Of a stretch of 64,000 nucleotides of DNA, positions 58,753 through 63,881 are shown piece by piece; positions within the stretch are counted from its first letter, which is position 1, and each line of letters begins with the position of its first letter. A model generated the notes under the pieces. It saw only the letters and a list, made by a program, of their open reading frames with translations. It was not told where the DNA came from and ran no database searches. The position numbers and the translations under genes were made by a program. This DNA comes from Synechococcus sp. (GTDB lineage Bacteria; Cyanobacteriota; Cyanobacteriia; PCC-6307; Cyanobiaceae). Location of the stretch: assembly GCA_047284725.1 (NCBI GenBank), contig JBJBEO010000001.1:2040203-2104202 (forward strand). The letters run 5' to 3'.

Positions 58753-58904
58753 TCAGGCCCTGAAGCTCCGACCAACAACTCGTCATCATTGATCAAACCA
58801 AGTGGGACGGATCCAGACATCACCGATCTCAGCAGAGTCAAGCCAGAAGCATCACACAATGCGTGAGCCGGTCAAGCGATAGATGCAAACTCCAACGAAT
58901 CACC

Positions 58905-60383
58905 TCAACGCGTCAACTTTCTGATCATGCGATGAACAATTCGACCTGGGTGCAATGACCAGAAAGACGTCTCTTGTCCTTTCTGATTGATCGGATCCGC
59001 CAAGGATTTTTGAGTAGAAAACAATCCCAAAACGGCCTCAAAGGACAGAGGGCGATAAAAATAAAAGCCTTGAGCTAAGAGAACACCCATGTCTTTGGCG
59101 AATGACAGCTGAGCCGATGTCTCGATCCCCTCTGCAACAACCTTCATACCGCTTTGAACCAGCGACGCAACAATACCCTTCAGAATCAGCTCCTTCTGAG
59201 CATCAAGCTCACCCGCAAAAGCGACAAAAAAACGATCCAGTTTAACCGTATTAATATCGGTTTCCAAGAGACGCTTCAAAGAGGAATAACCGATCCCAAA
59301 ATCGTCAATGGCAACGACAGCCCCCAAGCCTTTAAGCCGTGCAATAAATTCATCCATGTCTGCATTGGAAATTGTCACCTCTTGCTCAAGAATTTCAAAT
59401 TGAAACGATATATCAGGACACGTCGAAGCGACTCGAGAAACTGAATCAATGATTTTCTCCCTTGCCACAGGCGAGTTAAACGTTGCTCCGGAAATATTAA
59501 TACTGAAAACAAAATGTTTTAAATTAATGGAGTTTTTCATTACAAGCAGATCAGAGACTCCTCTTTCGAGAACGGTAAGATCAAACGTCTCAACCAACGC
59601 GTACTTCTGAAAGACCGGCAGAAACCTATTTGGAGAGTGCAAAACGCCATTAGCCTTGATGCGCGCTAACACCTCAAAACCGACAATCTGATTCGTTTGC
59701 AAATTGACGATCGGCTGGTAATGGGGCTCAACAAGGGAACGAGACAACTGATCAATGAATATTTTTTCAAAGTCGGCTTCGACATCAGGCTCTATCAAGG
59801 AATGAATTCCTTGAGCACTGAAAGAAGAAACAAGATAGCGATGGCCAAAATCTTTTTTAAACTCTTGATCACTACTCAAGAGCGCGTCCATCAGTAAAAT
59901 CGGATTGGATGGAAATCTCGCCAGATCCGCATCATAAAGCCCAAGAACATCAAGCTTAAGCAAGATATCTGAGCCACCAGAACCAAGATCATCGCCCGAG
60001 GAGGTGAGATCGCGATTTGAATTAATTTTGATACACTCTAACGAGGAATCTACAAGGTCCTCAAGGAGCCTTGAAGTATTGACGGGTCCAATATCCCTCA
60101 GCTGTTGGATTAAGACCAAAAAATCAGAACCATTAATATCATAAAACTTACTTCTCTTAGGAAGAACTCCTATCAACAAACGCAGGAAATTGGCTTTTTT
60201 CCGAACACTTGCTTCGGACTCAGTTTTCCCTTCACCCAAGCGACCGAGCAACCTGTAATGAATATAGATATAATTGATATTGAAATCTTGACTAATCAGG
60301 CAATCTTCTGCAAAAGCTAGGCTCGTATAGTCAATTTCTTGACTCTCGCAATAAGACGCAAGCCAATCTAGAGAATAAATCAT
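58905..60383 (-). CDS. EAL c-di-GMP phosphodiesterase with degenerate N-terminal GGDEF-like region
   Basis: YQPIV, FEVLAR, SINIS, FEILE, IDDFGIGYSSL, KLDR, AEGIE, AQGFYF; start ATG 60383 chosen to avoid overlapping the cyclase. Confidence 0.9.
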   Translation of the reverse strand: MIYSLDWLASYCESQEIDYTSLAFAEDCLISQDFNINYIYIHYRLLGRLGEGKTESEASVRKKANFLRLLIGVLPKRSKFYDINGSDFLVLIQQLRDIGPVNTSRLLEDLVDSSLECIKINSNRDLTSSGDDLGSGGSDILLKLDVLGLYDADLARFPSNPILLMDALLSSDQEFKKDFGHRYLVSSFSAQGIHSLIEPDVEADFEKIFIDQLSRSLVEPHYQPIVNLQTNQIVGFEVLARIKANGVLHSPNRFLPVFQKYALVETFDLTVLERGVSDLLVMKNSINLKHFVFSINISGATFNSPVAREKIIDSVSRVASTCPDISFQFEILEQEVTISNADMDEFIARLKGLGAVVAIDDFGIGYSSLKRLLETDINTVKLDRFFVAFAGELDAQKELILKGIVASLVQSGMKVVAEGIETSAQLSFAKDMGVLLAQGFYFYRPLSFEAVLGLFSTQKSLADPINQKGQETSFWSLHPGRIVHRMIRKLTR

Positions 60384-60390
60384 TTTAGCA

Positions 60391-61572
60391 TCAAGCACCA
60401 GTGACCTTGTTTTTACCTTTGAACTTACTTTTATACAAGAACTCATCAGCGCTGCGCATCAGCACCTCGAGACTGTAACCTGACTTAGACGTACTCGAAA
60501 AACCGGCACTAATCGTGATACGGACTGGCTGATCGCTCTTATTAAAGTGGTACATCTCAATCTGATGCCTTAAACGATTCAGCAAATTAACCGCATCCTT
60601 AGCAGTCGCTCTATATAAGATGGCAAATTCCTCTCCGCCATAGCGCGATGAGCAATCAAAATAATCCCTTGTATTACTTTTAATGATAGCACCAACCTCG
60701 GAGAGAACAACATCTCCAACACCATGGCCATAGGTGTCATTGATTCTCTTGAAGTCGTCAATATCTAAAATACAAAGACAAAAATGGTCACTCGCTTCTT
60801 GAGCCCGTAAAAGCTTTAACTTGCAAATCTCAACGAAAAGCTTTCGATCCATAAGTTGAGTCAAGCCGTCAGTTTGAAGACCTGTAAAAAGAGAAGGGAG
60901 AATCTTATAGTTGAAAAACAGATAAATTGGGAGGTAAGCAAAGAATAGTGCTACAACAGCGATGGCAAACTCAAGGAAGAATTGATTAGACAAACCATCG
61001 TAAAATCCGCTCATTGAATACGTGTAGGCAAGCGTGTATCTATCAGGCTTGCTTTGGCCTTGTCTTAGCATTTGCCTCGGCACAATCTCTCGAGAAAAAG
61101 TGACGAACTTTCCAAGCTTGTTATGATTATTTAATTCAGCCTGTGTGCATCGACGAGCCTCAAAACAAGAGGCAAGCCTTCGAAACTGTGCATTGCTTAG
61201 CTGAGGAACCAGCAATGATTGGGAGTAAATTGGTTGATTGAGCCATAAAGGGACCGACGAATAAACAATTGTACCGTCAGCATCAGCGACAATGATTGAT
61301 GTATGATCACTAAATAACAATTTCTTGTCACGTTTTGCCAGCAAAATATGGGCATCTATGTGCGAAGCCAAAGAGGAGAGTGAATGGCCTGAATCCAGGT
61401 GACTTTCCACAAGACTTACATACTCATTGGCCTTTGAATTTTGATCTTTAACTTCAGATTCAAATGCATCCATGGTTTGATATATAGCCGCAAGCAAACT
61501 TATAAACAGTGTTGAACACGCAAAGAAGATCTTTGATTGCTTTTGAATTCTACGCTTGGTAGGCCTCCTCAT
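60391..61572 (-). CDS. Membrane-bound diguanylate cyclase with extracytoplasmic sensor domain
   Basis: Two TM segments; TDGLTQL, DIDDFKRINDTYGHGVGD, RYGGEEF (60625-60639), TISAG, ADEFLYKSK..GKN. Confidence 0.92.
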   Translation of the reverse strand: MRRPTKRRIQKQSKIFFACSTLFISLLAAIYQTMDAFESEVKDQNSKANEYVSLVESHLDSGHSLSSLASHIDAHILLAKRDKKLLFSDHTSIIVADADGTIVYSSVPLWLNQPIYSQSLLVPQLSNAQFRRLASCFEARRCTQAELNNHNKLGKFVTFSREIVPRQMLRQGQSKPDRYTLAYTYSMSGFYDGLSNQFFLEFAIAVVALFFAYLPIYLFFNYKILPSLFTGLQTDGLTQLMDRKLFVEICKLKLLRAQEASDHFCLCILDIDDFKRINDTYGHGVGDVVLSEVGAIIKSNTRDYFDCSSRYGGEEFAILYRATAKDAVNLLNRLRHQIEMYHFNKSDQPVRITISAGFSSTSKSGYSLEVLMRSADEFLYKSKFKGKNKVTGA

Positions 61573-61576
61573 TGGT

Positions 61577-62728
61577 TCACGAGTCAGCTAAAGATTGATT
61601 GGCCAAATAATAGGAGAGCTTCGTTCTACTTGAATTAGAAAAGATCGGAATTAACACAAGATTGTTTTTGAATTGAGTTCCGTCGGATCGGTAGTTAGTT
61701 ATGACGCACTGGAACCTTTTTCCTTTGGCAATGGCATCCTTGATTTCCGCCTTAATAGATACTTCAGTGTCAGGACCTTGCAAAAATCTACAATTTTTTC
61801 CCAATACAAACTCACGGGTGTAACCAGTGAGCTCAGTAAAAGCCTGGTTGGCGTAGATTGTAGGTTGGCCATCGGCCGTCATATCAGATATCGTGATACC
61901 AACGGATGATCTCTCAATAGCTTCTTTGAAAATCTCGGAATCGTCCAATATTTTTGTGACATCAGAGATGTTTTTAATTTCATCATCAAGGCTATGCTTC
62001 AAGTTTCTTATAATATTATTGTTTTTGATGTATACATTGCGCGAATAGAATAAACCTACAATGCCAACAACTGATGACATCAAGGCCGTGTAGTAAATTG
62101 GATTCATATATTCAACCTCTAAAGACTCCAAGCTCTTAACGCTCACCTCTTGTATACCTCGAAGATCACCAACCTTCCAATTTTTCTTGGGAGAATCAGG
62201 ATGAGCATTATGACAGGTGACACACGACTCTTTCATTCTCACAGGCGTTGCAAGCCTGAAAATTTCGTCTTGACCTATTTGACTGTACTTTTCGTAAAAT
62301 CGAAGCGTTGGATCCTTTTCAAAAACTTGAATGGAGTCTTGCTGAAAAGCATCGAGAGCTCTTTCCTCTTTACGGTTATTAAAAGGATATTTAGACGTAA
62401 AGGCATAATTGATTCTTCCATCTGAGTGTGTGGCATCAAAAATAGCGCCCAACTCGATGGAAAGCGTTGCAGGAATTGGAATCCCGCCCTTGAAGTCATG
62501 GTAGCGCTCAGAAAGCACAACTTTTCCCTCACCCTCTTGAACATTAGAGACGATATTTTGTGAATAATAGGCCCTGATATTGTCGACCAAAGAAGCAATC
62601 TCTACTGCCTCATTTTTCATTCTGGTTTTCGCTGCATCACGAAGACCAGTCGTAAACAGTAAAGGCAAAAGCAATCCCAAAAGAATTGAAGCAGCCAGAA
62701 AAATATTGAGAACTCGTTTAGCGCGCAC
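61577..62728 (-). CDS. DUF3365/Tll0287-like c-type heme domain plus LOV domain membrane sensor
   Basis: TM; PIPAT; ATPVRMKESCVTCH..HP...WKVGDLRG; TM; LOV with YANQAFTELTGY, GKNCRFLQGP, NYRSDG, N, Q. Confidence 0.88.
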   Translation of the reverse strand: MRAKRVLNIFLAASILLGLLLPLLFTTGLRDAAKTRMKNEAVEIASLVDNIRAYYSQNIVSNVQEGEGKVVLSERYHDFKGGIPIPATLSIELGAIFDATHSDGRINYAFTSKYPFNNRKEERALDAFQQDSIQVFEKDPTLRFYEKYSQIGQDEIFRLATPVRMKESCVTCHNAHPDSPKKNWKVGDLRGIQEVSVKSLESLEVEYMNPIYYTALMSSVVGIVGLFYSRNVYIKNNNIIRNLKHSLDDEIKNISDVTKILDDSEIFKEAIERSSVGITISDMTADGQPTIYANQAFTELTGYTREFVLGKNCRFLQGPDTEVSIKAEIKDAIAKGKRFQCVITNYRSDGTQFKNNLVLIPIFSNSSRTKLSYYLANQSLADS

Positions 62729-63807
62729 TGGAGCCTAGATGCTCTCTTTATGCTAGTAACGATTGACGCAAAAGACAAGGACAAGCAGGGAGCTTGCTCG
62801 TCTCTTCATATCCTTAGGAGACTAACAGCGCAGCGCTCATCGATTGATTGCATTGCGTACCGATCAAGCCAACCGACCTACCCTCCGGGCTGTATTTTCT
62901 TCAGCAACCTTGATTCAAGGGGGAAAAGGCATCAAGCAAAGGACAATCCTGATCGATTAATTCATCTTCCGAAAAGAATGATGCAATAACTGTTGTGTAT
63001 AAGAGAAAAAATATGTGCGATTCTTCGATCCATTCTGGGTCCACTCCTCGATCAATAGAGCCACCGGACATGGTCTTTCCATACCCAATAAGTGCCTAGA
63101 AACCGATCGCGGTCCAAGGATCATGCTGAAGACAAAAACTCTCATGCTGCCATCCACTAAATCCTAGAACTACCCGGCAATCACAACATTGATGTGCCAA
63201 GAGCATGAAGAAATCCAGTCACAATCGGATGATCTACCTCACAAGAGCCGCAACACAATGAGGCGAAGAACTCCTCATTGCGCACCATCGACTGACGTCA
63301 ACCAGCCATTGGAAGCTGGAAGGAAATCGCAGGAGTGGGCATGGCATTCTGCCTAAAACAGGCAGAACATTTCCGTCTCTTCAATCATTTGCCCGTCAAA
63401 AACTCTCATGGTTTGACCCACACTTTTCAGATGACCGACACATATAAAAATCGAAGGACAGTTTCCAGTGGGCTTTTCCAAAAGCCAATGCCAGCAATGA
63501 ATAAGCTTCTTTTCCAGGGTGCCCGCACTATCCAACCACTGCCAATCAATGAAGACATAGCACCATGATCCCTGCCTGGCGAGCATCCAAGTGATCCACA
63601 GGATCAATCACCATTGTGGCGACATCAACAGGACAAAGCATTCGCTTCAGCGATGCACGCCATGGCTGAAAACCAAAACCCATCCCCCTGTTTGGGCACT
63701 GGGCCAGTCCCCTTGTCGCTGGTGCCAGGCAATCTTTCAAGCGATCACGTGCCCACAAACGGGGCACTGCAACGCAGCAGCAACAGAGAATCTTGATGGA
63801 GATTGAG

Positions 63808-63881
63808 TCGGGATGACAGGATTCGAACCTGCGGCCCCTTCGTCCCGAACGAAGTGCGCTACCAAGCTGCGCTACATCCCG
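63808..63881 (-). tRNA. tRNA-Pro(CGG)
   Basis: Reverse complement CGGGATGTAGCGCAGCTTGGTAGCGCACTTCGTTCGGGACGAAGGGGCCGCAGGTTCGAATCCTGTCATCCCGA. Confidence 0.97.

Follow-up and report, generated by a model that had tools for sequence, protein, structure and literature searches.

How does a membrane receptor that carries two cofactor domains and no enzyme pass on what it senses? The question is raised by a gene in a 64,000-nucleotide stretch of a Synechococcus sp. genome (hereafter the window; GenBank assembly GCA_047284725.1, contig JBJBEO010000001.1, positions 2,040,203 to 2,104,202 of the forward strand). The encoded protein joins a c-type heme domain, predicted to lie outside the cytoplasm, to a LOV photoreceptor domain predicted to lie inside. 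An initial annotation, made from the letters of the window, had read it as a dual-input sensor without an effector that must signal through protein contacts. Here we report that the gene is the first of a three-gene cassette, in which it is followed by one gene encoding a membrane-bound diguanylate cyclase and another encoding an EAL phosphodiesterase, and that this order recurs across picocyanobacterial genomes. The reading that we prefer, at a probability of roughly 0.6, is that the protein is an output-less co-sensor of blue light and of an extracytoplasmic heme ligand or redox state, and that it acts by contact on the co-encoded enzymes of cyclic di-GMP (c-di-GMP) turnover.

The sensor consists of a first transmembrane (TM) segment, a Tll0287-like (sCache_heme) domain with a CVTCH motif, a second TM segment, a long helix and a LOV core that ends just past its last strand. 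Translation returned every motif that the initial annotation had named (CVTCH at 62210-62224, GKNCRFLQG at 61775-61801, WKVGDLRG and the terminus YYLANQSLADS). Three of its broader claims also stood: that the cofactor motifs are intact in both domains, on the evidence of motif positions and homolog conservation; that heme c is held outside and LOV inside, which hydropathy and basic flanks predict; and that effector domain and C-terminal helix are absent, on the evidence of Pfam, NCBIfam and an AlphaFold2 model. The Pfam and NCBIfam scans found no enzyme domain in the 383-residue polypeptide, and no DNA-binding family either. The model, built from 56 homologs with a mean predicted local distance difference test (pLDDT) score of 86.4, has a helix at residues 2-65, a beta sheet bearing the CxxCH helix (167-175), a helix at 209-272 and the LOV core at 277-380. 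A homolog 85% identical to the window sensor (P0003) is likewise 383 residues long and has an ATG at the same start position. Basic residues stand at the N-terminus and after TM2, an arrangement that should put the LOV domain inside and the heme domain outside, where attachment of a c-type heme needs it to be. A strong TM1 and a weaker TM2 flank the heme domain; its location is a prediction, in which periplasm and thylakoid lumen are indistinguishable.

Would the LOV domain respond to light? Pfam places a PAS_9 match at residues 277-368 (E-value 5.8e-14), and two NCBIfam LOV families match residues 253-378, a blue-light histidine kinase LOV family at 1.3e-31 and the YtvA family at 1.7e-30; both matches fall under the whole-protein cut-offs because the LOV part alone is matched. 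NCBIfam kinase models match the LOV part only, far under their cut-offs. The motif GKNCRFLQG comprises residues 310-318, on the minus strand, with C313 as the adduct cysteine, and N312, C313, N345, N355 and Q378 are each at least 90% conserved among 56 homologs; we take N345, N355 and Q378 to be the flavin-contacting residues on strands G, H and I. The helix-F arginine is replaced by lysine in the window sensor (IKDAI, against IRxAI in the family). A phmmer search with the window sensor against solved LOV proteins gave E-values of about 5e-21, and Foldseek laid the LOV part of the model on 9vf7 and 6ph2 with a root-mean-square deviation of 0.8-0.9 Å over 114-117 columns (E about 1e-13). Chains of DsLOV and 8c05 were among the LOV matches, DsLOV among the top ones in both searches. 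After the last LOV strand only three residues remain in the model; the protein ends five residues past Q378, and no histidine-kinase domain (HisKA/HWE, HATPase) follows. It thus shares with short LOV proteins the absence of any fused effector, and departs from their small soluble core with caps in having 383 residues, two predicted TM segments and a heme domain.

The heme domain is assigned by its Pfam match, which scores 80 bits against a cut-off of 24.1 and spans positions 3-143 of the 144 in the profile. CVTCH (residues 169-173) sits on the model helix 167-175, a strand at 189-198 comes next, and the order of secondary structure fits a Cache-type fold. A single-sequence search of the domain against solved structures returned nothing meaningful, and LOV matches took up the Foldseek list for the full sensor model. 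When 23 homologs were combined into a profile, it matched the Tll0287 structure 5B82 weakly, over the C-terminal half only (E 0.0068), in an alignment that pairs the CxxCH motif and the VGDLRG motif. Apart from C169 and C172 the domain has no invariant cysteine, and no conserved cysteine equivalent to the axial one of Tll0287 was found among the aligned homologs. According to the accessible part of the preprint that defines the family, signaling-type sCache_heme proteins bind nitric oxide (NO) without a protein distal ligand (bioRxiv 10.64898/2026.02.01.703092). The same genome holds a second Tll0287-like gene outside the window (G000:C1:2365793-2366281; PF11845 E 5.9e-39, open frame of 319 residues), which outscores the window copy against the PF11845 model and may be a stand-alone Tll0287-type form.

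Is the missing effector an accident of this copy? A near-length search yielded 603 proteins at E <= 0.001. Among the matches listed, all 120 of 120 homologs (346-537 residues) pair PF11845 with PAS-type families and carry no enzyme domain, and those with names are Cyanobium or Synechococcaceae proteins. Most homologs are 41-46% identical to the window sensor and have an apparently helical tail of about 90 residues after the LOV core. A tail-less minority ends within a few residues of the window sensor: P0001 (97% identical), P0003, P0004 (55%), and also P0053, P0100 and relatives. The P0100 group has one named member, a metagenome-assembled genome (MAG) labeled Synechococcus sp. WH 8007. We built a quick tree of 56 rows trimmed to the window-sensor columns, with a midpoint root, several long branches and support from the Shimodaira-Hasegawa-like approximate likelihood ratio test (SH-aLRT) only. 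There, the 12 tail-less rows (346-405 residues) form one clade (SH-aLRT 100) inside the picocyanobacterial radiation, and kinase-fused proteins fall outside the effector-less radiation.

The fused proteins came from an exhaustive HMMER search and from a search limited to longer proteins, the best of which reach 40% identity over 95% of the query. Seventeen of the 22 full-length-type matches scanned are kinases, one has a GGDEF domain and four are without output; seven kinase-fused proteins keep both CxxCH and NCRFL(Q/R). The initial annotation had considered that homologs might continue into a kinase or GGDEF domain and make this copy a truncation. Such homologs do exist, but only as distant relatives, at most 40% identical over full length, and the close family listed above has no enzyme. 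Because the close family is effector-less and the fused forms are this distant and lie outside the effector-less radiation, the window copy is not a truncation; judged from these alignments, the effector-less state is a conserved lineage trait. We also considered the tail of Cyanobium-type proteins as a leftover kinase DHp domain and rejected it: a BLASTP comparison of P0012 with the kinase-fused P0130 aligns the sensor part only (41% over 380 residues), and the two proteins have no similarity in the tail.

Histidine kinases with the same heme-c Cache and LOV module are P0130, P0140, P0141, P0148, P0155, P0158, P0166 and P0283-P0287, and we found no description of such a dual-cofactor heme-LOV kinase class in the literature searched. 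They share with the window sensor the order TM, sCache_heme, TM, LOV and both cofactor motifs, at 28-40% identity over the sensor, but run on into HisKA/HWE and HATPase domains, whereas the window sensor and its close family do not. Because the same module drives kinases elsewhere, the union of heme and LOV can be regarded as a working signaling unit.

Where, then, would the output lie? The initial annotation saw the sensor without this context and missed both the GGDEF gene that starts 4 nt past its stop and the EAL gene that comes next. The cyclase gene lies in another reading frame and its product has a membrane-protein-type N-terminus, and therefore sensor and cyclase are two genes and not one broken fusion. 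That N-terminus is basic, and two hydrophobic segments enclose a domain of about 160 residues. The active-site motif GGEEF is intact and invariant across 26 homologs; the I-site reads RDYFD, against RxxD in most homologs. A model of the extracytoplasmic domain (pLDDT 86.8) drew weak sCache/PDC-like matches in Foldseek, the best at 2.8e-3 to the extracellular domain of WalK. The idea that this domain is a heme-less paralog of the sensor's Cache domain was rejected (hhalign probability 0.5%). It holds a cysteine pair, C136 and C144 (CF...C), that is invariant or near-invariant across the 26 homologs and may form a disulfide, hence a second redox-sensitive element in the cassette.

The start of the EAL gene overlaps the end of the cyclase gene. 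Invariant among 20 homologs of its product are E258 (in EVL), N317, E351, E354, DDFGxGYSS at 381-389, K402, E439 and Q459, residues of the motifs that bind metal and substrate. The N-terminal 230 or so residues align with a degenerate GGDEF-like region of homologs; the N-terminal parts of cyclase and phosphodiesterase gave nothing significant in Pfam. Most partner phosphodiesterases have about 650 residues, with a GAF domain, the degenerate GGDEF-like region and EAL, and the window copy is without the GAF domain. The loss of GAF here parallels the loss of the LOV tail in the window sensor; tail and GAF do not strictly co-vary, two loci (L019, L023) having the tail without GAF. The window cassette is a stripped-down version, with no LOV tail and no GAF on its phosphodiesterase.

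Conservation across genomes carries the argument that these genes belong together. A scan for relatives kept 80 genome loci, 33 of which are of a picocyanobacterial type with 38-46% identity to the window sensor. CxxCH and the LOV cysteine are kept in all 33 (two read NCRFLH), and the tail of about 90 residues is present in 31. In 32 of them at least 1.2 kb of sequence is available past the sensor gene, and in every one of these 32 a cyclase homolog comes immediately downstream, on the strand of the sensor; the remaining locus has 38 nt only. These homologs include the extracytoplasmic half (query residues about 92-390), and the first possible cyclase start falls -4 to +10 nt from the sensor stop in 25 of the 32. 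Where 4 kb or more is available downstream, as in 29 loci, an EAL gene comes next on the same strand in 28; L015 instead has a GGDEF-EAL gene on the opposite strand. Upstream there is no conserved gene, a shared frame occurring in at most 6 of 26 loci. Because the order GGDEF then EAL is conserved, the likely outputs are encoded next door. The sensor was never observed without the cyclase.

Precedent for a receptor of this kind exists. The accessible text of one preprint describes an output-less Cache_heme-HAMP (CHH) receptor that binds an operon-encoded serine/threonine kinase with nanomolar affinity, NO binding enhancing phosphorylation (bioRxiv 10.64898/2026.05.25.727664). As far as the portions available of that work and its companion go, CHH of Pseudomonas azotoformans resembles the window sensor in its two TM segments, extracytoplasmic DUF3365/Tll0287 heme-c Cache domain and cytoplasmic non-enzymatic domain, and also in having no intrinsic output and an enzyme partner in the same operon (bioRxiv 10.64898/2026.05.25.727664; 10.64898/2026.02.01.703092). 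They differ in that CHH has HAMP and a PknB-like kinase, while here there are LOV, a diguanylate cyclase and an EAL phosphodiesterase in a cyanobacterial host, and in that binding is shown for CHH and would be expected by analogy for the window sensor. On this precedent the earlier claim of signaling through protein contacts is reasonable; we would replace its "must" by "may" and add that the probable outputs are its neighbors.

On the LOV side, short LOV proteins that lack a C-terminal extension are known, among them VVD of fungi and DsLOV of Dinoroseobacter shibae, and are presumed to signal by way of partners (PMC4335406). They too combine a LOV core and a helical N-terminal cap, and have neither a J-alpha helix nor a fused effector (PMC4335406). 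Unlike these small and soluble proteins, the window sensor has an N-cap that continues from a TM helix and a second, extracytoplasmic heme sensor. Tll0287 of Thermosynechococcus (PDB 5B82) belongs to the same Pfam family and has CxxCH and a VGDLRG-type motif; the portion of the family-defining preprint available describes it as a stand-alone soluble heme protein with Cys/His ligation (bioRxiv 10.64898/2026.02.01.703092). The window subfamily, in contrast, is membrane-embedded, carries a cytoplasmic domain and has no conserved distal cysteine.

The LOV domain is of the same type as that of LOV-cyclases and LOV-GGDEF-EAL proteins, 8c05 being among its matches. In those proteins a coiled coil links sensor and enzyme within one polypeptide. 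In the cassette each is encoded by its own gene, and the cyclase connects directly to a TM2 of its own. The LOV-activated diguanylate cyclase of PDB 8C05 and the LOV-GGDEF-EAL protein of Synechococcus elongatus SL2 reportedly couple blue light to c-di-GMP turnover. Stand-alone heme-NO sensors of the H-NOX and NosP families are encoded beside c-di-GMP enzymes or kinases and regulate the neighboring cyclase, phosphodiesterase or kinase by protein contact; in contrast to the window sensor, to which they have no homology, they hold a cytoplasmic heme b and no photoreceptor.

How might the cassette work? The two-pass receptor would hold a covalent c-type heme in an extracytoplasmic Cache-type domain, in the periplasm or possibly the thylakoid lumen, and flavin mononucleotide in its cytoplasmic LOV domain, and may dimerize through the Cache domain and the long helix that runs from TM2 into the linker. 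The state of the heme, set by a ligand such as NO or O2 or by redox, would be passed down this helix to the LOV N-cap. Blue light would produce the Cys313-flavin adduct and remodel the surface of the LOV beta sheet and N-cap, which is predicted to be free because no J-alpha helix covers it. The combined state of heme and light would be read by direct contact with the cyclase, the phosphodiesterase or both, and cellular c-di-GMP would shift. The analysis shows the domain content, motifs and fold, the logic of the topology, the conservation of gene order and the status as an island; we infer that the cofactors are loaded, that the photocycle runs, what the heme senses, the contact with the neighbors and the direction in which c-di-GMP changes. 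A bolder version, which we hold tentatively and at somewhat under even odds, is that of a two-cofactor, two-compartment detachable input module that would logically combine blue light with a gas or redox signal from outside the cytoplasm and set c-di-GMP accordingly, within a 5-kb plug-in cassette moving between picocyanobacteria.

Several points weigh against a contact-acting co-sensor. No experiment or computation in this analysis shows a contact between the sensor and either enzyme; a complex prediction for sensor and cyclase scored 0.00, which is no answer and evidence for neither side. In the window copy TM2 scores 1.47, under the usual hydropathy threshold; segments at the equivalent place in nine homologs score 1.36-2.65. 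The sequences do not assign the sixth heme ligand or the sensed signal, and offer no conserved counterpart of the Tll0287 axial cysteine. Most relatives bear the helical tail that the window copy is without, and if the tail serves for docking, signaling by the window copy may be different or absent. Of 121 genomes of the family that were sampled, 6 matched a profile of the N-terminal half of the cyclase. Three of these have the cyclase beside the sensor (the own genome, G093 and G103), and three genomes of one other genus have a cyclase homolog without the sensor. Since the cyclase occurs without the sensor, it can work without it; a sensor seen only with the cyclase and a cyclase also seen alone suggest an accessory input module more than an obligate complex. 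In the three genomes of the other genus (loci L099 417-7198 and L100 2813-7366) the homolog of the partner cyclase lies inside a circularly permuted ATP-grasp / Alpha-E / transglutaminase / DUF2126 cluster, which has overlapping starts and stops and no heme-LOV gene.

The chief rival accepts a real sensor and places its partners elsewhere, among other GGDEF or EAL proteins or kinases, or makes it a scaffold, so that adjacency would reflect shared transcription of light and redox signaling genes. Other targets are possible because, above the Pfam cut-offs, the own genome yields 22 matches to GGDEF and 10 to EAL. The occurrence of the cyclase family without the sensor in three of the six genomes that hold it speaks for the same view. 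Sensor-like domains are present in the partner enzymes as well; with such a domain on the cyclase and GAF on most phosphodiesterases, each enzyme could be regulated independently, the gene order then meaning co-expression only. We nevertheless consider this rival unlikely, since cyclase and sensor are neighbors in all 32 loci, the stop codon of one and the start codon of the other mostly overlapping or almost touching, and since a single 5-kb island brought all three genes into this genome (below), which argues for a functional unit.

Could the protein instead be no light sensor at all? The heme domain would then serve in redox chemistry, much like a cytochrome anchored in the membrane, and the flavin-binding PAS domain would sense or relay redox, as on the "oxygen/voltage" side of LOV. 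In the family-defining preprint roughly half of the sCache_heme proteins stand alone and resemble redox proteins (bioRxiv 10.64898/2026.02.01.703092). The two-TM architecture with a cytoplasmic signaling domain is, however, that of the signaling cluster in the same source, again as far as the available text goes (bioRxiv 10.64898/2026.02.01.703092); the adduct cysteine and flavin-binding residues are conserved, NCRF(L)(Q/R/H) with its cysteine standing in 33 of 33 loci; photoactive LOV proteins are the nearest matches in both structure and sequence; and the host is a phototroph. We regard this account as quite improbable. Least likely is decay, in which the window copy is a non-functional, island-borne remnant of a LOV-kinase or of a tailed picocyanobacterial protein. 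The missing tail, the phosphodiesterase without GAF, the altered I-site of the cyclase and the strain-specific island are what it would predict. Yet all three frames are intact, the cofactor and catalytic motifs are all kept, the members of the fully supported tail-less clade that are 97%, 85% and 55% identical stop at nearly the same place, a few residues apart at most, and no fused form closer than 40% identity was found. A contact-acting co-sensor stays our preferred reading.

How did the cassette come to this genome? It lies in a low-GC (guanine plus cytosine) island that the initial annotation had missed (Table 1). The GC content of the three cassette genes is 40-42%, against 64% in the flanking gene; the island as a whole stands at 40% GC in a genome of 64%. 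In three of three congeneric genomes the site is empty, the stop of the left gene lying about 14 nt from the 3' end of tRNA-Pro(CGG), and the sensor gene was not found in any of the 29 other sampled genomes of the genus. The own genome has one sensor copy only, and 26 of 400 sampled genomes of the host family have the gene, all at 39-46% identity. The cassette arrived by horizontal transfer as a unit, from a donor of lower GC content. A search of the island for mobility marks found no integrase and no tRNA-derived direct repeat or attachment-site repeat.

Table 1. Features of the sensor, its cassette and the surrounding island (positions in the window)
Feature	Position	Strand	Basis
Sensor gene, sCache_heme-LOV membrane protein, 383 residues	61577..62728	(-)	GTG start, open reading frame with Pfam/NCBIfam
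TM1 or signal anchor, residues 6-24	62657..62713	(-)	Kyte-Doolittle 2.5; basic RAKR N-terminal to TM1
Extracytoplasmic Tll0287-like (DUF3365 / sCache_heme) domain (predicted), residues 32-197	62138..62635	(-)	PF11845 E 3.2e-22
CVTCH c-type heme attachment motif (C169, C172, H173)	62210..62224	(-)	Invariant in 56/56 aligned homologs
Probable TM2, residues 211-229	62042..62098	(-)	Kyte-Doolittle 1.47; within model helix 209-272
Cytoplasmic helical linker (predicted), residues 230-272, TM2 to LOV N-cap	61913..62041	(-)	Continuous helix 209-272 in AlphaFold2 model
LOV core, residues 277-380, GKNCRFLQG (C313), N345, N355, Q378; no J-alpha helix	61589..61900	(-)	Pfam, NCBIfam, phmmer, AlphaFold2 model, Foldseek
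Diguanylate cyclase gene, 393 residues: TM, extracytoplasmic domain of ~160 residues, TM, GGDEF	60391..61572	(-)	PF00990 E 1.1e-37
Cytoplasmic EAL phosphodiesterase gene, 513 residues, EVL variant	58905..60446	(-)	PF00563 E 6.1e-52
Low-GC island, ~5.05 kb, left flank gene stop to tRNA-Pro 3' end	58753..63800	.	GC; empty congener site
Stretch of 1.08 kb from sensor gene to tRNA, 48% GC, no convincing open reading frame, RNA family or remnant	62729..63806	.	
tRNA-Pro(CGG), 3' end borders island	63807..63881	(-)	RNA search

Between the sensor gene and the tRNA, at 62729-63806, there is no open reading frame longer than 84 residues, no Pfam match for six small frames, no Rfam match and no remnant of the genes found upstream in other loci; promoter- and terminator-like sites are no commoner there than in shuffled sequence. 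The stretch presumably holds the promoter and leader, and a long leader, a promoter region and decayed mobility genes are candidate roles for it. Among the sequencing runs listed for expression, none is recorded as RNA. Three cDNA-labeled libraries of a synthetic community (one study, flagged as probably DNA) gave contigs of 151-282 nt at no less than 99% identity and depth 2-6, which cover parts of all three genes and the flanks and in which RNA is indistinguishable from carried-over DNA; two high-depth contigs touch 18-22 nt only and are spurious.

The cassette may be mobile more widely, as two observations hint. The GC content of the sensor gene is under that of the surrounding locus in many genomes (0.50 against 0.63 in L011, 0.53 against 0.64 in L025, 0.56 against 0.64 in L010), and some genomes (G185, G273, G303) hold two or three sensor copies. 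The full cassette also occurs in L029 and L036, whose MAG records are titled Bradyrhizobium ivorense and Chitinophaga pinensis and are probably mislabeled or mis-binned. A metagenome scan for close relatives of the window copy returned nine loci, none above 42% identity.

What is new here, and what would it mean? Each part is of a known kind, and we found no description of a heme-c Cache domain joined to LOV, or of a sensor, cyclase and EAL cassette, in the literature searched. In the main text of the family-defining preprint the term "LOV" occurs 0 times, and its supplements may list such architectures; the accessible part lists sCache_heme-PAS combinations generically (bioRxiv 10.64898/2026.02.01.703092). 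The system would be a compact natural case of how one TM helix merges a heme signal from outside with a light signal from inside, and of how separate enzymes are addressed by a LOV domain that has no output. Optogenetics, too, could take an interest in a LOV domain anchored in the membrane and able to recruit or regulate a partner.

The host is a phycobilisome-bearing cyanobacterium with a genome in a single 2.58-Mb contig. Its supply of GGDEF and EAL genes sets it apart from oligotrophic marine Prochlorococcus and Synechococcus strains, for which the part of the source available reports neither domain (PMC3747582). With 603 near-length proteins and 26 carriers among the 400 family genomes sampled, the family of the sensor is widespread. 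If the heme domain faces the thylakoid lumen, the receptor would report the redox state of the photosynthetic lumen together with light. If our reading is true, light sensing and redox or NO sensing would be linked to c-di-GMP, and so to aggregation or sinking, in abundant freshwater and coastal picocyanobacteria.

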